Positions 2,872-62,576 of a stretch of DNA of 64,000 nucleotides are shown here, piece by piece; position 1 is the first letter of the stretch, and each line of letters opens with the position of its first letter. This DNA is from an uncultured Candidatus Saccharibacteria bacterium (GTDB taxonomy: Bacteria > Patescibacteriota > Dojkabacteria > JAOAGR01): assembly GCA_964503755.1 (NCBI GenBank), contig CAZDBO010000001.1, forward strand, positions 13,933 to 77,932. The letters are read 5' to 3'. A program made the translations under genes and the position numbers. Under the pieces are notes generated by a model. The model was not told where the DNA came from. It was given only the letters and a program-made list of their open reading frames with translations, and made no database searches.

Positions 2872-5800
2872 TTAATTATATTTTTGTACATCTTCACCTG
2901 TTATTCCGTACTTTGCTTTTAATTGGTTCAAATACTCTTCATCACTGCTAGTTTGTGTCGACGTTTGCGTCGAATTGACATCACTTGTAAATCCAGTATT
3001 TGTTTGATCATTGTTAGAACATTGAGAATATTGGTTGTTCGAATATTGAATACTACTATTCTGATTTTGTGTATCAGTTGTTGTATTTGATGCTGATTGA
3101 TTATTCACAAGATTATCAATCTGTCCTGTATCTACAGGAACTCCATATTTTTGTTTCATTTCATCGACAAAATCCGCATCTGGATGATAATAACTCATTT
3201 GTTGATTCTGATTGGATTGTGATGTTTGAGTAAATTGATTATCTGAAGATACATCATTCATCACCTGAGTTGAGTTGTTGTTTTGATCCTGTGAGGAATT
3301 TTGTTGTTGTAGACCACTAGTATTAGAAAAGGCCGTCAAATCTGTTGTTTGTTGGTTTGAATAATTGTTTGTCGTACTGTCAAAATTATTATAAGGTTGA
3401 TTTTGATATTGTTGTAATGAACTAAAATTCATCATATTAATATCAGATCCATAATTTTCACCTGTCTGAGAAATCGTTTCGCTAGAATATGTTGTCGAAC
3501 CTCCATTAAACGTTTGCAAACCACCTGACGCATATCCATCACTACTTTGTAGTTGATTTGAAGTATTTTGTGTTGTGAAATCTGGATTTTGACTTGTAAA
3601 TGTTTGATTTGTTTCGTTTTGCTGATTCGATTGTTTCGGATCATAATTTGATTGCAAATTTTGAGTTTGAGTAATTTGAGCTTGGTCAGTTTGGTTAGTA
3701 TAACCTTGCTGCAAATATGGATTTGGATTTACATATTGATTATATAAAGCCTGATTATCAAGCATCATAGCAGATATTGCTTGATTCGCTGTATTCATTT
3801 CTTGTGGTGGTACTTTATAACCTGTTTGTAGTGGCATTACTCCAGCAGGAATGTCATATTCATTAAATTCATTTTCAAGATTTCCTTGTCTTTGATCACG
3901 TATAGATTTGATGAATTTAACAAAATAATATCCCACTACAATCATTATGACAACAATAATAAAACCAATGACTATAAGTGCTATATTTCGATCTATACCA
4001 AATATTGTAGCTTGTCTTATTACATCAGGATTAGTAGGATTTGGGGAAGCTGTAACTTTGATATTAAATGTCCAAACTCTCTGCGCTATGTCACCGTCAC
4101 GATTTATTAACTTTACCTCAACTTTTACCGTACTACCAGCATAATCCGAGACAGGATCGAATACCGCACTATTCTGTGTGATACTAGTAAACTTGAACTC
4201 TATATCATTTATCTTTATGTAACTATCTTCTCGTGACACTGGCGATGAAGACTCGAATTCTACAAAAATACGTTCACGTCTATTTTCTACAGTATTGTTT
4301 TCTGCAGGCGAAACTTGCAATATTTTTAGTTTTTTCTCTTCTTGTTTTGTCAATTCAAACTGTTCAGAAACAGCACTAGCTTTTACATCCTCATTTGGTG
4401 CTTTTGCAAAAGCTGTAACTTTGATGAAATATTTTCCATTTACAATTTTTTCATCGTTTGAAAAATCCCATTGATACTTTCTAGCATCAGCTGGCAAAGT
4501 AGTGATCAAAGTATAATTTATACCATCTTGAGAGTATTCCACTGTAATCTTTTCTATCGAATCTCCACCAGATGTAACCTCCCATCTGATTTCATTATTT
4601 TTCGAATCAAACTTTGTACTTGCTCTTGGTGATGTAACTGTAAGCTTTATTTCTGGTATTGGTTGGGGCGTAGGTGTTGTAGTAATAGTTGGTCTTGGTG
4701 TCGAGGTAACTGTAGGTTGAGTTGGGACACTTGTAATTTTAGGACGTGGAGTTGATGTCGTCGTGGGTTGAGGTTGTGGATTATAGCCACTATTTATGTT
4801 GATTGTGAGAGGATGAACTATATTTCCACCTCTACCATCAGTGACTAATATCAATAATCCAACAATATCTTGACTGCGGGGCGCACTACCAGTTATCTTA
4901 TTATCATTTAATTTGATCCAATCTGAATATCTGTCATTTAGAATACGAAATTCTAATTTATCTCCATCAGGATCAGTAGCATTGATTGTATAATCAAGAC
5001 TGCTACCAGGTCTGATAAATACCTCTCTTGGTGAGTTAACTACAGGAAAAGAATTTGCAAATCTGAGTCTAGGATCACCACCAAACGCACCAATATCTAT
5101 CCTACTTCCATTAATCTTATCTTTCTCTGAGGGATCACCCTTATCACGAATAGCCGAATTAGGTTGCAATTGATATTCATTAGATGCGATAAAACCTGAG
5201 TCTACAGACAAGTTATTATTAGCTGAACCTGTTGCCAATGTCTGTGGTTCATAATTTGTTCCGTTTTGAAAAGAATTACTATATGTTACTGTGGATCTTG
5301 GACTTTTGATACTTATACCTTTTCCTTTATTTCCTTGAACCGTTGTATTTTTAACGTTAACAGAGGAAATCTGCCCTGATTCTACTATTCCATCACCATT
5401 ATCAACAATTGTTACATTTTTTATCTGGACATTACCGGACTTTATCAAAACAGCCTCTTTTGCAGATCTTGCAATAATTGTGTTTATTACTATAGATTCT
5501 ATAGATTGTGTTTCAGAATTAAATTCGACACCATAATCTGTCGAATCATAAATAACGGTATTGTTGAGATTAATAGCCCCTTTTACTAATTTAATAGCAC
5601 CTTTAGTCTTATCAATCTTTGACTCTGATACTTCAACTATACCAGAAACTCGCAAAGCAACATCCTGAGAATTTGTAATATGAGTATTTAGTATACGAAC
5701 TTTTAGTGGATTATCTTGAAAAGTTCTATTTCCATCAACAGTATTATCAACATTGATTGCTGGACCTTGTGTACCGGTAATTTTAAGATTACTTATCTCT

Positions 5801-20140: not shown

Positions 20141-21969
20141 TTAAGTCTGATTAAGTCTGGATTCTAACTTTAAGAAAAAATCTTCAATTTTTTTAGTCAT
20201 ACTTGTTATTTCATCATCTGTTTTACGTCCTCTAAATTCTTGTTTAATCTCTATAATACCTCTTTGTACTAAACCATCTTTTAATTCTAAAAAGGATGTA
20301 TATAACTCTTTCTTTCTACCTAATATCATTGAATACAGATTAATTATAAATTCTGTATCATCATCACTTGATAACACATTCCAAACATCAACAAATTCTC
20401 TAATAAAAGTCTCTGCATCCACGCAAAAGGGTATCCTTATTTTTTGCAGTTTATCGATATCTAATGATTAGATATATCTTTTTATTTCTTCATCTAAAAA
20501 TATAGAATGTTTATCTAAGACTAAATTAATATAGACTCTTCTATTGAATCCATTATTTTTATTTCTCCTAAAATCATCTACGTGCTCTAAATCTCCAACA
20601 AATACATTAAAAAAATTTTCAATCCTATCTAACATAGAAATAAAATTTCCTAAAGATTTGAATTTTTCTATTTCTATTATCACAGTAACTAGTTTTAATG
20701 CGTCATCATATGATAATGATAATTTTCTAATATTTAGAAACTCTTTTATTTTATTTACTTTATTTTGATCATAACCGACTTTTCTCCATAAATCTTACAA
20801 TGCTAGTAATGTTTTACCATCTATTTGATCTATTGGAACAACTTCTGCTATCCTTTTTTTCATTTCTTGAAAAGTTCTTGACGTAAGGCATGGATATATA
20901 AGATAACTTTTATCCAGACTAAGTTTTGTTAATAAATCCATACTGATAAGAACATAATCTTTCATATCTCCTATATCACCTTTGATTTTCGGATCATTTT
21001 GTTGTGTATAAAACAAATACTCAGGTTGTGCTAATGATAAATTTCCTGAAATTATGTAAGCTACTGTTTCATGCCTAAAATGATCAAATATTTCGATGCT
21101 ATGAATTGGTGTAGTCGGTAAACTATTTTCAAAAGATTTTCTATGAATATCACCTAAACACATCATATGCCAGAGTATATGATGAATTTCGTGTTGCAAT
21201 TCTAGGAATTCTTCTCTATTATATTTTCCATTTATTCTAATAAAACTAGGTGCGTATAGTCCTAAATAGGGCATAGCTGGCGTTAAACGCTGTCCAAATC
21301 GTTCTTCAACTAAATTATCAAATTTATCATCGGTTTCGATAATGAATAACCCAGGAATAGGTTCATATAAAACACATGTATTTTTCAAATTATTGTATAA
21401 ATCTACATCATCTTGCATTGTACATTGTAGTACATCATATAGAACATAATCATAGTAATCATAATCTTTTTTATTGAACCATGGATGTATACTCTTAAAA
21501 GAATATCAAGTTTATCATAGTCTGGAAATTCTTTTTGATATTCTTCTAATAGTTCTTTATTTCTTAATAATTTACCAGCTATCGTGGGAATAATACTTGC
21601 TACGAACAACTTTCTCAACTGATCAGGCATTTGATTTAATAATTTCTGTATTTCAGCATTTTTTTCTTTTCCAACAAATTCAGATAAATCAATGTTAGAA
21701 TTATCAGTTACAGAATCAGTTCTTAATTTAGTTCCAGATTCGATTCCAGACTCAGTCCTATACTCAGTTCATTGTTCGGTTTAAGATTCAATTCCAGACT
21801 CTAATTTGCTTTTTTGCTCTTTAAATCTTTCAATACAACAATTAATAATCCCTAAATAAAATAGTCCCGTAATTTCTGATATTTTTCTTAGTGCATTCCT
21901 ACGAGACTGTTCAGGCGATTTTCCTAATTCGTCTTCATTTCCTATATCAACTCGTCGAATAGCAAACAA
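20141..21969 (-). pseudogene. Disrupted gene for an HExxH-motif (zinc-metallopeptidase-like, ImmA/IrrE-like?) protein; five ORF fragments
   Basis: Fragments 21781-21969, 21403-21630, 20795-21418, 20468-20683 and 20141-20422 are co-linear. The last three share one frame separated only by TAA codons. A frameshift lies in a T-run near 21500, and an in-frame TGA and TAA lie near 21650-21780. HEIHH motif at about 21170. Confidence 0.55.
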
Positions 21970-51705: not shown

Positions 51706-53106
51706 TTATTTACTAAAAAAATTGGTAGAAAACTTTATTCCCTTAATTAAATATTCAATATCAAAATTTTCATCTACGCCATGCATATTACAATCCTCAT
51801 TTGCAAGTGGGATCATGACTAATGGAACATTTAATGTGTTATAAAAATAATTTGTTATTGGTAAACTTCCACCAACATACTTATAAATCACTTTTTCTCC
51901 CCACACATCTTCTAATACTGATTTGGCCTGATCCACAAACTTATTATTTATATCAATCTTTAGTGCTTCATTAGAGCCGTCCATCTCGAATGAAAACTCA
52001 GCATATGATGGAAGGTTCTCTCTAACAAAATTCTTGAATTTTTCAAATAATTCTTGTGCTGTTTGGCTAGAAACCAACCTAAAATTGATCTTAGCGGTAG
52101 CCTTATACGGAATGGCATTTTTGTATCCCTCACCTGTATATCCACCTGTTATTCCTGTTACTTCAATACAGGGATACAATCCGGTTTGAGTATGGAAATC
52201 ATTATTATCAAAAAGTATTATATCTTTTCTTGTTGTGATATGTTTATATTCGTCTAGATCAAATGGAATGCTGGTATTATTTTTTTTGACTTCATAAGTA
52301 ATAGGATCAACATTTTCATAATAGTTAGGAATAAGTACTTTATTATGTTCGTCGTGTATTTTTGATATTAAATTAGCTAAAACATGTATTGCATTTGGCG
52401 CAGTACTGCCATAAATACCAGAGTGCAGGTCTTGATTTCCTACTTTTATTTCCAATTTAGCGTTAAATGTACCTCTAAATCCTACTTCGATATTCGGTCT
52501 TTTTGCAGATATTTCACCATCAGAGATCAGTACAAAATCGCAACTTAAAATTTCTTTATTTTCTTCAATAAATCTTTTTATATTTGGTGATCCGGATTCT
52601 TCGTTGCCTTCTATTAAAAATTTGACATTATATTTTAATTGATTTGTTTGAATTAGCTTGAATATAGTCGCAATATGGATAAGTATTTGTCCTTTGTTAT
52701 CAACAGCACCACGAGCAATTATTCTATTATTCGTTTCTGTCACTGAGAAAGGATCTGATGACCAACCGTCATTTATATCAGCTGGCTGTACATCATAATG
52801 TCCATAGATAAGTACTGTCGGAAAATTTTCATTCTGATAAAATTCTGCCAAAACTAGAGGATTATCATATCCTTTTGTGATTCTTGAATTAAAATGATTA
52901 GATAAAAATAATTGATTTAACCAATCGGAAGTAGAATCTATCTCGTTTTGGTATTCTTGATTTGTAGAAACACTTCTAAACTTTATGAATTCTTGAAGCA
53001 ATTTTTTGTATTCTTGAAAAATTTCACTGATAAATGATTGCTTATCCATGATTATTTGTTTATTTTGAATTATTAGGATTGTAATTAAAGTAGGGAAGTA
53101 TGTCAA
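51706..53106 (-). CDS. M20-family metallopeptidase (dipeptidase/ArgE-DapE-like)
   Basis: GHYDVQPA, ARGAVDNKGQ and EGNEESGS motifs typical of M20 peptidases. Confidence 0.75.
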   Translation of the reverse strand: MTYFPTLITILIIQNKQIIMDKQSFISEIFQEYKKLLQEFIKFRSVSTNQEYQNEIDSTSDWLNQLFLSNHFNSRITKGYDNPLVLAEFYQNENFPTVLIYGHYDVQPADINDGWSSDPFSVTETNNRIIARGAVDNKGQILIHIATIFKLIQTNQLKYNVKFLIEGNEESGSPNIKRFIEENKEILSCDFVLISDGEISAKRPNIEVGFRGTFNAKLEIKVGNQDLHSGIYGSTAPNAIHVLANLISKIHDEHNKVLIPNYYENVDPITYEVKKNNTSIPFDLDEYKHITTRKDIILFDNNDFHTQTGLYPCIEVTGITGGYTGEGYKNAIPYKATAKINFRLVSSQTAQELFEKFKNFVRENLPSYAEFSFEMDGSNEALKIDINNKFVDQAKSVLEDVWGEKVIYKYVGGSLPITNYFYNTLNVPLVMIPLANEDCNMHGVDENFDIEYLIKGIKFSTNFFSK

Positions 53107-53132
53107 AATTTTACTTATATATTAAATAATAC

Positions 53133-53684
53133 TCAAGAATGATTTTTTGGCCAGATTAAGAATTTATCTAAATGAATCTTAAGTATATAAGACGTGAAAG
53201 CATTATTGGTGGATTCAACAAAGAGTTCTTTTCTTGTGATTAATGAGTTTAGTACGGTTTGTAATATTTGATCATTATCATTATTTTCTTTTGCATATTG
53301 GCGTATGGCAATTCCAAATTGTTCTCCATTTTTTACTTCTTCAGATACTCTTTTTGGTAATTGTGTTTTGCCACTTATGCCTAAAAAGTATTGACCGGTT
53401 CTATCTAAAATCAATGTTACACAAACTAAAAAATAATTATCATCAATTAGAGCTAATCCAGCTTCCATACCCACACCGATATCTGCATCTGTATCATGTG
53501 ATAGAGCAGCTCTAGCTCTATTTTTAGCTCCAGTAATAGTGATAAATTCATCTAATGGTTGATCTGGTATGTCTGATGGAACATCGTATCCTGTTAAATT
53601 TGCAGCTATGTTGAGATCTTTTCAGGTATCTAAAAGTATTTGTTTTTTGTCTTTTGAGGTGGTACCTAGTGCAATTTTCATCAT
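53133..53684 (-). pseudogene. YjjX-like inosine/xanthosine triphosphatase (Maf/Ham1 superfamily) with an in-frame TGA
   Basis: Conceptual translation MMKIALGTTSKDKKQILLDT*KDL...ITITGAKNRA...VGMEAGLALIDDNYFLVCVTLILDRTGQYFLGIS resembles YjjX (…RAGARNR…IEAGID…FSWVVIE…). TGA at 53622-53624. Confidence 0.55.
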
Positions 53685-53766: not shown

Positions 53767-54932
53767 TCATTTCATTCGAATTGGGTTATTGATGATATAT
53801 GGATTGTAAATACTATAGTTTGAATAATTAGGAAACGGCTTTATAATTATATCCCTTATTATTGAGTTGATAACCATTGAAAAAATAGACATCACTAAAT
53901 AGATTAAAATTAATGTCGTTGCATTTTTTACATAATTACTATTTACAAGAAATACCAGTATTGTTACTATTGGTAATGAAGAGAGAAAATATATCAAAAA
54001 CTTTTTTAGGCCCGTTTTAATCTTTACATAGATATTAGATATATTACTTTTTGGTTTGTTATTTATTAAATCTATTATTTGAAAAATAGTTTCAACCGTT
54101 GAATATAAAAATAAAAATGTAATAAACAAAGCTAAAATTCTTGTTGGCCAAACTTTATTAATATATTCATCGTGAAATACTTTGATGGGATCTTGATTTG
54201 AAAACTCTATATATTTTATTGTTTTCATTAATTATATAAGGTTCAATATATTTGCCGTTTAATTTGCCAAATAGATTTCCTTCGAAGCCTGTATACAAAA
54301 CATAATAACTAATGCGTATATCGCCATGCTCTAGATTTTCTGGAGTACCACTTGGACTGTTGTGAATGAATATATAATTCTCGTTCATTAAGATAGCTCT
54401 TTTATCTAGGTTTAAGATGTCAAGACTAAGTTTTAACTAGGTAAATTCGGGTAGGGTTATATTTTTAGGGTCAAATTTGTATAGGCTAATTTTAACTTCT
54501 GAAACGAAATACTTGGAACTGTCAATTATTTTAGTAGAATTGAATGAATTGTATATCCTTCCTTCACTTCTTCACGCCAATCTAAAGTTAATCTATAACC
54601 ACTTTTCCTATTTCCTATTACGGACCAAGAGTACATTTCTGCTTTTCCATATATTGCTAAATATTTATCTGGCTTTAAATAAAGATCGTCTCCAATAAGT
54701 TGTTGAGTTTCAATCTTACCTTTGTAGATACTAATTTGTTATTTAAGTGAGAATTTTGATTTGGATTTGATGAAGAAATATCAATAGCGTACTTTGCTAT
54801 TTCAAATAGATGAATATTTAGTTCATTATTAAACATCCAGTATACCGAAGCTCCACCAAAAGCAAATACAATTGGCATTACTACAATGAAAGTAATCAAT
54901 TTGATTAAAATATTACACCCAAAAAATTTCAT
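53767..54932 (-). pseudogene. Membrane-protein family gene, copy B (disrupted); paralog of 55398-56470
   Basis: Fragments 54675-54932, 54167-54388 and 53767-54228 plus intervening frames align colinearly with copy A (e.g. IGDDLYLKPDKYLAIYGKAEMYSW vs IGDELFLLPDKYIVVKRKVEMYSW; GTPENLEHGDIRISYYVL vs GTPDNPKVGDIRIIYYII). Interrupted by TAA/TAG codons and frame changes. Confidence 0.55.
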
Positions 54933-55397
54933 GAGAGTATTTTAAATAAAATAAATTATTAAAGTAAAATTTAAATGAATATTCCGTTTTGCAGCATTGT
55001 AAAATTTATCTTGATTTTAAAGTTTATGTACAAGTGGTTTGAAAAATTTTATTCTAATCTATAAATTAAGTTTTTATTTTAGTTGGAATCTAAGACAAAC
55101 TCTTTAAAAGATTGTTATGTGACATGGATTATTTTGAATTTGTGATACAAATTGAATTTTAAAAATATGAGACATCAAGAGTTTTTTAATTTTATAAATA
55201 ATTCAATATTAGATTCTTGCTGATAAATTAGTATATTGTCCTAATTTTTATTCATTAACGCGGAAATAGGAGTTATTGTGAAACGAGATACAAAATGCTC
55301 CGCTATTTTAATGTTTATGATCGAACAAATAGGTGATGTGATAAATAATAAAAATAACCAAAATACAAAGTTATAAAATAGTTTATATAAAAAACTA

Positions 55398-56470
55398 TCA
55401 ATATTTGCAGCAATAGGGTAGTAGAAATAGTAATGATAAGTCAATTATTATGCTTTTGTAATATGGTAATTTAAGAAAAGGATTTTTATTTCTATCCAAA
55501 TTGAAACATATAAATACAGTTGTGCTTACGGTCAAGAAATATAGAATAAAGAATAATGCGGAATTAATTTCGAACTGGTCAGTGATATATTCATTTTCCA
55601 TAATGTTGATTGCTTGCTTATAAGTACCTACAAATAATCTATAGAAAAAGGTTTTTTGTTTATCATCATAAAAAGGTACAACATAATCTTTATTTAATTC
55701 TCCAAAAATAGTTACTAGTGTATCTGGATATATTATATAATAAATAATACGTATATCACCTACTTTTGGATTGTCTGGTGTTCCATCCTTATATTACGTA
55801 TATAAATGTAAGTATTATCCAATAGAATTATTTCATCTGGTATATTTGGGTTTTCTAAATCTAGCTTATCGGGGTATAGTGTTAAGCGTTCTAATCCTGT
55901 AATTTCTAGATTTTTGGGATTAAATTTGTATTGTCCAATGTATGCTTCTTCAACAGTGTTTGTAAAACTTTCAAATAGTTTTGGTGGATTTTGATATGCT
56001 TTATTGTGGAATCTATATTTGGGAGGACCTTCTAACCATGTAGAATAGTATCAGTATATAGTTTCTTCGATTTTTGTACTATCTTTATAGCTTAATCTTG
56101 TAACTCTAGTTTCTTCTTCGACCCATGAATACATTTCTACTTTTCTTTTTACAACGATATATTTATCAGGGAGTAAAAATAGTTCATCACCTATTATAGA
56201 TCCATCAGATTTGACTATTCCAGTTATATATATGGGTTGTTTATCAACTGAATAATTTGCATAATCAACGGTAGGTGTTATTTGTTTTGCATTTTTTGCA
56301 ATAGTCGCAAAATCTTTTATTTCATATATAAAATAAAGAGTGGTAGCTATCATAATAAAACTGATTATGAAAATCATGATAAATTCTGCTGCGAATTGGG
56401 ATTTGTGGAATGCCGAAATTATATCATTCAGACTTAAACTGCTGTTTGAAACATTTTGAGTATTGTTCAT
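55398..56470 (-). pseudogene. Membrane-protein family gene, copy A (disrupted by in-frame TGA, TAA and a frameshift)
   Basis: ORF 56051-56470 ends at a TGA, after which the same frame stays open for about 75 more codons (YYSTWLEGPPKYRF...). It then shifts frame to ...GTPDNPKVGDIRIIYYII... and ORF 55398-55601. Confidence 0.55.
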
Positions 56471-56559
56471 TGATCGAGTTAAACAGAATATTATCGTAAT
56501 TTTAATGAAAATTTAATTATGGATTTAAAAATTTATTTTCCATGAAATTAGTTAACTCA

Positions 56560-57180
56560 TGTTAACAAATTCTAATCTAAGGACAAAATACTCATCTATG
56601 ATGTAATTTATAGATCAAATCTATCTTTATAATCAAGAGTATCTTTTATTCTAACTCTTTTTCCAGTTTTGGTAGTACTACTTGACAGTCACCTATTACT
56701 AAAAATCTTCGTCACTAAGATAAGATGGTTGATCTGGATTTATGGCAATGATCATATCGTTAGGATTATTTTCTTTGTACGATATTAAAATCCTCTTTCA
56801 TTATAACTTATGCCTATTGTTATGACAAAATCAATATCATTTAACCATTTTGGATTAATATTATATCTTAACCATGGGTCACTGATGAAAAAGGATCTTA
56901 TGCCTGTTTTTCATGTAGATTATCAACATTCTCAGTAAAAATCTGGCATTTTAACTTTATTGCTAGATTTCTAATAGCATAATGAGACGTAGTGGGATCA
57001 GGTTCTAATGTAGATTTAACGGAACTAACACAAGCCTTAATGATCTCACCAGGTGCATCTAGAGCCTGTTTTATAAATTTGTCTATTGGAATGGACATGT
57101 CAATACCAATTAGCTCATATAGCTCTTCCATATCTGGGATTTTGCTAGCTGTTGATATATCAGCACACCTGTATAAAATA
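56560..57180 (-). pseudogene. Sir2-family (sirtuin/CobB-like) NAD-dependent deacylase, heavily decayed
   Basis: Fragment 56898-57131 carries HYAIRNLA and IFTENVDNLHEKQA (PNxxHxALAxL and TQNIDxLH sirtuin motifs). The upstream in-frame segment CADISTASKIPDM is a degenerate GAGIS..SGIPDFR motif. Downstream frames contain many stops. Confidence 0.6.
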
Positions 57181-57381
57181 GAATTCGTTTATTTTTAATT
57201 AATTCTATTAGTTTTTTAATATTAGTTTTTTAATATTGGTTTTTTAGGTTTGGGTGAAATATTTTGGCATAATCCTTGGTAAATACGATGAGAAAGATCT
57301 AGAGGAAATTTGTAAGCAGGTGCTTGAGATACATCACAATTTTCCTTTTTTAATATATCTAAAGTTTCTCCAATTATCTTA

Positions 57382-57911: not shown

Positions 57912-58688
57912 TCAATTATTAATTTCTTTAATTCTAAACATACCCGATTTAACCAATTTTATACTGTTATAATTATTTCGATCTGAGAATTCAAATTGCC
58001 ATATTAAATATACTTCTTCATTTTTAACCTTTTCGAAGAATAAAGTAATTATTCTTTTCTTTGTATGTGTTTGCCATTGTCTATATGGATAGTAGAGTTG
58101 ACGTATTATTACATTGGTAGCATTAAAATTCTTTGCTTATACAAGTACAATTTTGTTTTTACCTTTATATCCTGCATCTACCTCTGTTTGAATACTCGAT
58201 ACTTTTATAAGATGCTTTCCAACGTAAAAATCAAATGTAGGAGTATATTTTCTACCTCTAATTGTCAATACTAAGGTAGGATCATTTGTGAAAGTTCTTA
58301 TTAGGTTTGTAGCATAAGCATAATCTAAATGTTGCATTTCTGAATTTCCTATTTTTGCTGTATCCAAAATAAAATCAAGTTTAGAATTATAAATAATTTC
58401 TTCATTTTTAATATTAGATATGTCTACATAACCTTAACCTCGAATTATGTTATAAAAACCATTTTTAACAGGCAATAAAAAAAGATTATTCTGTACAAAA
58501 ATATCAGGTCTATCTTCACGACTATCTTGTTTACACAGTATTCTGACTTCCTTTTCACCTGTTTTTTTAAAGTTCTGACAAGATCTCTTTATTTGTGATG
58601 CATGGAGGACATATCGAGACTTATCAAAATCATGTTCAAGAATCTTATAGTCTTCAAATATTTTTTGCCATGATTGATTCATTGCCAT
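57912..58688 (-). pseudogene. Type II restriction endonuclease-like gene with two in-frame TAA codons
   Basis: ORFs 58434-58688 and 58137-58367 plus a further roughly 70 codons share one frame separated only by TAA (58434, 58137). Located directly downstream of the MTase remnant. Possible PD-(D/E)xK region ...TEVDAGYKGKNKIVLV. Confidence 0.45.
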
Positions 58689-58693
58689 ATTTT

Positions 58694-59494
<801 letters not shown>

Positions 59495-59622
59495 AATATG
59501 GTTTTTGAATTTTTTATTAATTTAAGTATATATTTATTGTATAGTGCTCATTGATAATTATAATGCATAATTTTACCTTGTTTATTGCATTAAGTAAAAA
59601 TATAATTATCAATTTTTCCATC

Positions 59623-59712
59623 TGGCGGAGAGAGTGGGATTCGAACCCACGGTGCCCAAAAGAGCACACCGCTTTTCGAGAGCGGCACCTTAAACCACTC
59701 GGTCATCTCTCC
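59623..59712 (-). tRNA. tRNA-Ser (anticodon CGA)
   Basis: Reverse complement GGAGAGA-TG-ACC..GGT, anticodon stem CCGCT/AGCGG with loop CTCGAAA, long variable arm, T arm GTGGG-TTCGAAT-CCCAC, discriminator G, CCA. Confidence 0.85.
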
Positions 59713-61061: not shown

Positions 61062-62576
61062 GTGATAAAACATATTCTAAATTACAAAAGTTTGATTTAT
61101 TTAATCATATTTATTTTATTCTTTCTTGGAGTTTATTTTAGAGTGGCAACCTTTAATAATTATGGATTTTATTTTGATACGGTTTACACTATGTATAATT
61201 GGGCAAAAATAGTTGACGAAAATGGTTATTTTTCTTTTTGGCAGAATTTTGATGTTTTATCGAAAAACTATGAAATTGATTATTTTGACTATTTACCTTT
61301 TAGTATCGGTTATATTTATTTAATTTATATTTTATCTAAAGCAACTAGTTTTATTTTTAATTTAGAATCTCAGTTATCCTTTGTTTTTACGTTAAAGTTT
61401 CTAAACTTTATTTGTGATTTAATATTGATTTATATTATTTATGAACTTTTAAAAAATATTGGTATAAAATCACATATTTTTAGATTACTAATATCGGTTT
61501 TGATTTTCTCATTACCATCAATTTGGAGTATTAGTGTGATGTGGGGACAGTTAGATGTTTTTGTGGTTTTATTAGTGCTTGTTTTATTAAATCGTTTACT
61601 TGGTAAACGCAAAATAACATACTTTGAGAGTTTTTTATGGGGTATTTTTTTTGCCATCTTATTAAACTTTAAGGTACATGTCCTTATTTATTTACCAATA
61701 ATTTTGTATTTATTTGTAAACAATGAATTTGGCTTTCACATTTGGAAAAAGTATGTTTTTATTTGGATTCTTCTTATCGCTAATGTTGTTTTAATAATAG
61801 GTGTCAATATTTTAAACTTACAATCATTAATTTTTATTTTATATCTGTTAGCTTTTATCCTAATTATTTATTTGGCTAGATTTAATGATAGATTCGTTAG
61901 GTTTTCTTCTGGTATGTTTTTAGGGATCATATCTATTTTGAGTGTTTTTTTTAATGTGAATTTTACGCTTTATACTAATAATATATTAGGTTTTATGACA
62001 AAAGAAGATGTTGTATCTATGTATGCGGCAAATCTTTGGTTGGTATTTGGATTTTTGTCTGAAACGCCAACAGTTGATGCTTTTGTATTTGGAATAAATG
62101 TTAAATATTTATTTTGTATTGTTAATCTTTTGTTCATATTATTGTTATTTTATCTTTCATATAAAATAATCAAATTACAAGGGAAAAACTCTAGAAATGT
62201 TTTGGTCTTTATATACTTCATTTATCTAATATTTTTTATTTATACATCAACAAAAATGCATTCAAGATATCTAATTTACGCCATACTTCCTGCAACTGTT
62301 TTTCTATTTATTCTTTATCATAAGAAAATGGATAAAAGTTTATTTGTTGTTTTTGTTATAATAACTAGTATACTTGTTTTATTACATCTTTTATTTTTTT
62401 TGAATCAAGTTTATGTTTTTTTTGACAATTATTCTTACGATAATACTAAGTTTATAGAATCTATAAACTTTTTCTCGTTAGAACAAATTAGTATCTTTTT
62501 ACTCTTTACAATAATAAGTTTGATATATTTTTCACTCAATTTTATTAAAAATGTATACCTTATTAAACAACACTAG
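61062..62576 (+). CDS. Polytopic membrane protein, possibly a GT-C-type glycosyltransferase
   Basis: About 12 predicted TM helices over 504 aa. No motif recognisable with certainty. Confidence 0.3.
   Translation: MIKHILNYKSLIYLIIFILFFLGVYFRVATFNNYGFYFDTVYTMYNWAKIVDENGYFSFWQNFDVLSKNYEIDYFDYLPFSIGYIYLIYILSKATSFIFNLESQLSFVFTLKFLNFICDLILIYIIYELLKNIGIKSHIFRLLISVLIFSLPSIWSISVMWGQLDVFVVLLVLVLLNRLLGKRKITYFESFLWGIFFAILLNFKVHVLIYLPIILYLFVNNEFGFHIWKKYVFIWILLIANVVLIIGVNILNLQSLIFILYLLAFILIIYLARFNDRFVRFSSGMFLGIISILSVFFNVNFTLYTNNILGFMTKEDVVSMYAANLWLVFGFLSETPTVDAFVFGINVKYLFCIVNLLFILLLFYLSYKIIKLQGKNSRNVLVFIYFIYLIFFIYTSTKMHSRYLIYAILPATVFLFILYHKKMDKSLFVVFVIITSILVLLHLLFFLNQVYVFFDNYSYDNTKFIESINFFSLEQISIFLLFTIISLIYFSLNFIKNVYLIKQH

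Follow-up and report, generated by a model that had tools for sequence, protein, structure and literature searches.

The 64,000-nucleotide stretch of contig CAZDBO010000001.1 analyzed here (hereafter, the window) very probably contains two recently inactivated tandem genes of the TMEM43/LUMA family (PF07787), carried by a close relative of Candidatus Dojkabacteria bacterium SKW36 that has a low guanine-cytosine (GC) content and uses the standard genetic code. The genes, designated copy A (55241–56470, minus strand; approximately 409 codons after frame correction) and copy B (53767–54932, minus strand), lie in a region (53767–56470) whose minus strand holds only short open reading frames (ORFs), which a three-frame translation joins into two conceptual proteins. 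A close relative retains an intact tandem pair, coding for proteins of 370 and 397 amino acids (aa), at the same chromosomal position, and in the window lineage each copy has taken a few disabling mutations (a nonsense mutation and approximately two frameshifts in copy A, a nonsense mutation and three frameshifts in copy B). We propose that the state seen today would be one of loss of function under relaxed selection, with AT-biased drift.

Copies A and B are colinear, diverged paralogs arranged in tandem on the minus strand. Their stop-masked, frame-corrected translations are 29 per cent identical over 309 columns (BLASTP; E-value = 5e-29), far below the limit of 1e-3 set by a first-pass annotation, made from the DNA sequence alone, which had put forward a duplicated pair of membrane-protein genes, now diverged and lying in tandem. 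The motifs that this annotation quoted are present in both conceptual translations, and its coordinates for copy B (54932–53767) hold. Its end for copy A (55398) does not: the gene extends approximately 150 nucleotides (nt) further, to a stop codon at 55243–55241, because an additional frameshift near 55421–55436 leads into the last transmembrane (TM) segment. The frame-corrected product of copy A begins with a TM helix, continues with an extracytoplasmic domain, and ends in further TM helices, and it is colinear with the intact homologs P0001 and P0002 and with the first gene of an intact pair in SKW36 (T43_1, described below). A single stop codon remains in the 403 corrected codons of copy A, and a single one in the 386 of copy B. 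The remaining two frames have one stop per 9–10 codons, and the suggestion that the frame beyond the TGA of copy A is not open by chance is thus borne out (one stop per approximately 400 codons in frame). Because these nearly stop-free frames occur in DNA of 27 per cent GC, the long open stretches are remnants of real coding sequence.

Hidden Markov model comparison of the conceptual proteins places both copies in a known family, which the first-pass annotation had not recognized. The scores against PF07787 (TMEM43/LUMA, formerly DUF1625) are 77.5 bits for copy A (E-value = 1.3e-21) and 48.5 bits for copy B (E-value = 9.4e-13), well above the gathering score of 23.3. All 94 members retrieved by a profile search carry PF07787, and those with a named organism come mostly from Patescibacteria (candidate phyla radiation [CPR]); the intact ortholog of copy B in SKW36 (T43_2; protein P0012) is named 'TMEM43 family protein' by NCBI. 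Intact bacterial members (367–402 aa) can be aligned with both copies over the whole length, and the copies share with the family the length class (approximately 370–430 aa), the order of parts, and the motifs GD-L-L, R-VEMY-W, NPP, and GD-R-Y. The family architecture, in which a single polypeptide of approximately 350–450 aa carries a TM helix at its N-terminus, then a large domain outside the cytoplasm, and a cluster of TM helices at its C-terminus, is found in the frame-corrected conceptual proteins only, and, unlike members of the family, both copies are pseudogenes.

Much of the conserved core of the family is still recognizable in both. Among 79 aligned members (residues in P0012 numbering), D82, R96, W103, W125, N139, G211, and P303 are invariant, that is, the same in all 79, and D212 and R214 are conserved in 99 per cent; copy A keeps all nine of these key residues and copy B eight (R96 is replaced by G). 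At the columns conserved at a level of at least 80 per cent (n = 79), copy A retains 45 and copy B 39, compared with 46 in the intact T43_2 and 40 in the intact T43_1. Copy A lacks the near-invariant W271 and R274, which lie where the C-terminal helices begin, and in copy B substitutions (R96G, P140S, G157S, and P208L) affect invariant residues still present in its ortholog.

An AlphaFold2 (AF2) model of P0012 (mean predicted local distance difference test score of 85) consists of a helix (residues 4–37), a beta-rich region (50–253), and three further helices (258–299, 308–341, and 348–373). From this model, we infer that the N-terminus of each ancestral protein would have lain in the cytoplasm, followed by one TM helix, a beta-rich domain of approximately 200 residues outside the cytoplasm, and three long C-terminal helices, which we interpret as the likely counterparts of the C-terminal TM segments of the TMEM43 family. 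Neither a search by sequence of a copy of the PDB nor a search by fold (best Foldseek E-value = 0.07) yielded a solved structure for the family.

The lesions were mapped by frameshift-aware protein-to-DNA alignment of intact proteins with the window DNA, and they bear out the earlier view that both copies are disrupted. All lie on the minus strand. Copy A carries an in-frame TGA at 56051–56053, where the first-pass annotation had located it; under the standard code it is a nonsense codon. The frameshift that had been placed near 55820 exists as well, and its position is better given as approximately 55791–55792 (to within a few bases), on which alignments to T43_1 and to P0001 agree; the frame change between high-scoring segment pairs (HSPs) in tblastn falls at 55793/55787. 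A second frameshift zone of copy A lies at 55421–55436, in the region of the C-terminal TM segments, where one reference protein places the change at 55421 and the other at 55435–55436; the region is a low-complexity transmembrane one, the exact site and the number of events (one or more) are uncertain, and the preceding frame ends nearby in a double stop after '...PYCCKY'. Copy B has three frameshifts, at 54724–54725, 54542–54543, and 54199, each also visible as a frame change between tblastn HSPs, an in-frame TAG at 54437–54439, in place of Gln173 of the ortholog, and several small in-frame deletions past the EMYSW motif. No long homopolymer is present at any of the frameshifts of either copy. 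The count is thus at least seven lesions in 2.7 kb, two of which are base-substitution stops. An intact ORF, as family members have, is absent from both copies (one stop and approximately two frameshifts in copy A; one stop and three frameshifts in copy B), which are pseudogenes of the TMEM43 family and not functional members of it. Neither gene appears able to make a full-length protein today. The source record appears to carry the remnants as small separate proteins (139, 85, and 153 aa), and recognizing two pseudogenes cleans up the annotation of these several entries.

When one genome per species was scanned, 27 loci that encode relatives came up (L003–L029). One of them, L003 (JAOAGR010000004.1, SKW36), shares synteny with the window and runs radA, tRNA-Ser(cga), restriction and methylase genes, a gene for a 427-aa FecR-domain protein, T43_1 (370 aa; L003 6747–7859), T43_2 (397 aa; L003 7965–9158), an M20 dipeptidase gene, galE, a gene for a 125-aa protein, dcd, and thyX, and the window has the same order, with different contents in the restriction–modification (R-M) slot. 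Flanking proteins are 68–95 per cent identical between the two, and the window organism is therefore a fairly close relative of SKW36. The two pairs coincide in chromosomal position and tandem arrangement, and with respect to radA, tRNA-Ser, and the dipeptidase gene they point the same way; they differ in that both SKW36 genes are intact, and in that the upstream slot is filled by another R-M system and the FecR-domain gene in SKW36 but by R-M and SIR2 remnants in the window. Only L003 has a tandem TMEM43 pair; the genes at the other loci are single. Judged by gene order, then, the tandem pair is a conserved chromosomal feature of this lineage, intact in the relative.

Copy B is, on the evidence of alignment and phylogeny, the ortholog of T43_2. 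The two are 65.9 per cent identical in amino acids over the ortholog's full 397 residues (381 pairs aligned) and 74 per cent identical in nucleotides, and in a neighbor-joining (NJ) tree they form a clade in 100 of 100 bootstrap replicates, within a clade of all four Dojkabacteria sequences (99 of 100). The divergence of copy A from the first SKW36 gene is far greater than that of copy B from the second.

Copy B also bears signs of relaxed selection, namely the loss of invariant residues described above, a raised ratio of nonsynonymous to synonymous substitution rates (dN/dS), and a lowered GC content. The dN/dS between copy B and T43_2 is 0.23, which is three to six times the values in seven flanking genes (0.035–0.087), and its GC content is 26.9 per cent, compared with 29.5 per cent in the ortholog, with the flanking genes staying within 1 percentage point between the two genomes. 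Since the dN/dS value is nonetheless well below 1 and the frames of both copies are nearly free of stops, both genes kept their function during most of the period since the two genomes diverged and lost it recently. To call such a pair unusual, as had been done at first, is an overstatement: it is a local patch of recent pseudogenes from a known family, with an intact pair in a close relative.

Could the pieces still work? Two of them are open ORFs with ATG starts, and the source record calls both: a 139-aa N-terminal piece of copy A with the TM helix and part of the domain (56051–56470) and a 153-aa C-terminal TM piece of copy B (53767–54228). With frames that are still mostly preserved, such fragments might be expressed from split but functional genes and either act as truncated membrane proteins or reassemble. 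We regard this as unlikely, because the breakpoints cut through the single beta-rich domain of the AF2 model, copy B is in at least four pieces, invariant residues are being lost, and neighboring genes are decaying too; moreover, the intact family members found are all single polypeptides of 345–460 aa.

The reading of the copy A TGA as a nonsense codon depends on the genetic code. Gracilibacteria use code 25, in which TGA is read as glycine, and the closest homologs of the two copies in the one-genome-per-species scan include Gracilibacteria. Many family homologs come from this lineage with its recoded TGA, and a gene caller has indeed produced a 236-aa read-through product of copy A; TGA as a sense codon (codes 4 or 25), together with programmed frameshifting, would in such a scheme restore full proteins. 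However, TGA is in use as a terminator in this genome. It ends 11 of the 37 ORFs of at least 200 aa in the window and is absent in frame from long conserved genes (zero in-frame TGA and 2–13 TGG codons in genes of 430–1100 aa), from which it follows that the genome uses the standard code and that the TGA of copy A is a nonsense codon. Recoding would also leave unexplained the TAG in copy B and approximately five frameshifts at non-slippery sites, and we give it almost no credence. The read-through product itself, a Logan protein (P0004), was considered as an intact allele of copy A and rejected, since its DNA is the same as that of the window and the gene caller had taken TGA for Trp. Its presence in a public protein collection is a trap when intact alleles of copy A are sought by protein look-up.

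Errors of assembly or sequencing offer another way to keep the genes intact in the organism. The sequence is probably a contig of a metagenome-assembled genome (MAG), and indel errors in a MAG consensus are possible, so that the stops and indels might be consensus errors. Yet the lesions, at least seven within 2.7 kb, are flanked by intact genes of 345–466 aa; two are base-substitution stops, and the frameshifts are not in long homopolymers. Logan contigs, assembled independently from two runs, agree with the window either completely or with the exception of one single-nucleotide polymorphism (SNP), and none has a gap: L001 and L002 (SRR11582145 and SRR11582148) match window positions 55162–56790 at 100 per cent identity with 0 gaps, and L030 covers 54124–55175 with one SNP. 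In addition, the drift of copy B at invariant sites, its raised dN/dS, and its lower GC content are not producible by such errors. An artifact of this kind is therefore very unlikely.

Several points weigh against two recently inactivated genes as the full account of the locus, and most of them concern copy A. Copy A is only 39 per cent identical to T43_1 and falls outside the group (T43_1,(T43_2, copy B)) in 96 of 100 NJ replicates; it may be a fast-evolving ortholog of T43_1 that is pulled to a basal position by long-branch attraction, or it may be an older paralog. No close intact relative of copy A was found among 5.8 billion proteins (best match 32 per cent identical) or in the JGI metagenomes (best match 31 per cent), and its ancestral intactness is suggested only by the preserved frame and by 45 of 79 family-conserved residues. 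The agreement with the Logan contigs is at the contig level only, and these contigs may come from the same sample as the NCBI contig. The remaining fragments of 139, 85, and 153 aa may be expressed. Finally, our view is that of a 64-kb window, and an intact third copy may conceivably exist elsewhere in the genome.

The locus is of little importance in itself; the family is of modest wider interest. To our knowledge, TMEM43/LUMA, a human disease (cardiomyopathy) gene, has no known biochemical function, and this human disease gene family has many bacterial homologs, of which those found are mostly from CPR. The window lineage, at least, is able to dispense with both of its copies. The hosts of the bacterial TMEM43 genes at the 27 loci and among proteins P0012–P0104 are mostly Dojka-, Gracili-, Peregrini-, and Magasanikbacteria and Minisyncoccota, with a few in Bacteroidota, Ignavibacteriales, Bdellovibrionota, alphaproteobacteria (Micavibrio and Hyphomicrobiales), other proteobacterial MAGs, and Cyanobacteria. 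Bacterial homologs of LUMA have been in the literature since Bengtsson and Otto (2008), according to the citation in PMC3198171, and are also given in PMC12295021. Eukaryotic TMEM43 has four membrane passes and a large lumenal domain and forms homo-oligomers (PMC3198171), and the arrangement in the P0012 model matches that description. By likeness to the eukaryotic protein, the ancestral bacterial proteins probably formed oligomeric envelope complexes, in which copies A and B were possibly mixed.

A bolder extension of this idea is that the tandem pair is an invention of the Dojkabacteria lineage, that it formed a hetero-oligomeric envelope complex for episymbiotic contact with a host, and that its loss, together with that of the R-M and SIR2 genes, marks a recent change of host or lifestyle. 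We consider this improbable as a whole. If it were true, the pair still intact in SKW36 would offer a practicable way into the ancestral function of TMEM43/LUMA.

The two pseudogenes are part of a larger area of decay. ORFs of at least 120 aa cover 81 per cent of the window, with large gaps at 53.1–59.7 kb, and between 53107 and 59735 there is no ORF of more than 153 aa. The whole 6.6-kb block between the dipeptidase gene and tRNA-Ser is thus a decay patch in an otherwise densely coding region. Its downstream boundary is the intact M20 dipeptidase gene (51706–53106, minus strand), 85 per cent identical to its L003 counterpart, and its upstream boundary is tRNA-Ser(cga) (59623–59712, minus strand; identified by ARAGORN and Rfam), which is conserved in the syntenic relative. 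Besides copies A and B, the block holds a SIR2-family remnant in three frames with several stops (56646–57230, minus strand; Pfam SIR2 E-value = 3.8e-5 on a stitched translation, no PADLOC match), a pseudogene of a type II restriction endonuclease, interrupted by two in-frame stops (57912–58688, minus strand; Pfam DUF6996 and DUF6997, E-values = 4e-22 and 1.6e-46; PADLOC REase_II, 1.9e-27), and a pseudogene of a type II N6/N4 DNA methyltransferase with at least two frameshifts and an in-frame TGA and TAA (58694–59495, minus strand; Pfam N6_N4_Mtase, 8.7e-55; PADLOC MTase_II, 2.6e-93). The SIR2 remnant has no counterpart in L003; its product may have been either a CobB-like deacylase with a housekeeping role or a SIR2 protein of defense. 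What emerges is local, recent loss of a TMEM43 pair, a type II R-M system, and a SIR2 gene beside tRNA-Ser in a Dojkabacteria-like genome. Like the pseudogene patches of reduced or host-dependent bacterial genomes, the block consists of adjacent genes with few frameshifts or stops each, recognizable frames, raised dN/dS, and lowered GC; unlike them, it is limited to approximately 6.6 kb of 64 kb, the remainder of which is densely coding and intact.

The first-pass annotation had placed the pair inside a defense-like island, and this part of it does not stand. The impression arose because the pair adjoins a SIR2 remnant and the remains of a type II R-M system, in a variable slot: L003 has a different, intact R-M pair (3185–5020) in the same slot by tRNA-Ser, which marks the position as a variable hotspot. 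Both the proximity to tRNA-Ser, the R-M genes, and the SIR2 remnant and the exchange of R-M systems in this slot are what would be expected of the remnant of a mobile defense island, in which the TMEM43 pair acted as a membrane effector with SIR2 and/or R-M and which, after integration at tRNA-Ser, is now breaking down as a whole. Against such an island, the relative keeps its tandem pair in place without a SIR2 gene and beside a different R-M system. PADLOC, at E-values up to 1, gives no match for copy A, copy B, P0001, or P0002, and only the neighboring methyltransferase and endonuclease pseudogenes match. When ORFs within 5 kb were clustered over the 27 loci, which are a small sample and not a statistical test of enrichment, no gene-like cluster other than TMEM43 occurred in more than three loci; the bigger ORF clusters (four or five loci) consist of antisense ORFs that overlap TMEM43 itself. 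Neither an integrase nor an att-like direct repeat of the tRNA 3' end was found at the block. We hold a decaying island to be highly improbable, and prefer the reading of the pair as recently inactivated chromosomal TMEM43 genes.

Some minor features of the window may be added. Positions 53000–53474, in the interval from copy B to the dipeptidase gene and extending into the start of the latter, are 74 per cent identical in nucleotides to L003 9371–9848 and are thus as conserved as the coding sequence of copy B. A 113-aa ORF on the minus strand (53133–53474) has no Pfam or PADLOC match, and L003 has no ORF of at least 80 aa there; the segment might serve as a conserved leader or promoter, might hold a small gene, or might be a pseudogene of greater age. 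A scan of the window with Rfam returned three tRNAs and nothing else, and a scan for promoters and terminators returned 32 promoter-like sites, compared with 32.8 expected, and no terminators. Between radA and ilvA lies an intact 504-aa ORF (61062–62576, plus strand) with no Pfam or NCBIfam match. Far from the decayed block, two ORFs on the minus strand, 20141–20422 (93 aa) and 20468–20683 (71 aa), fall in an 870-bp gap between larger genes and might be parts of one split gene.

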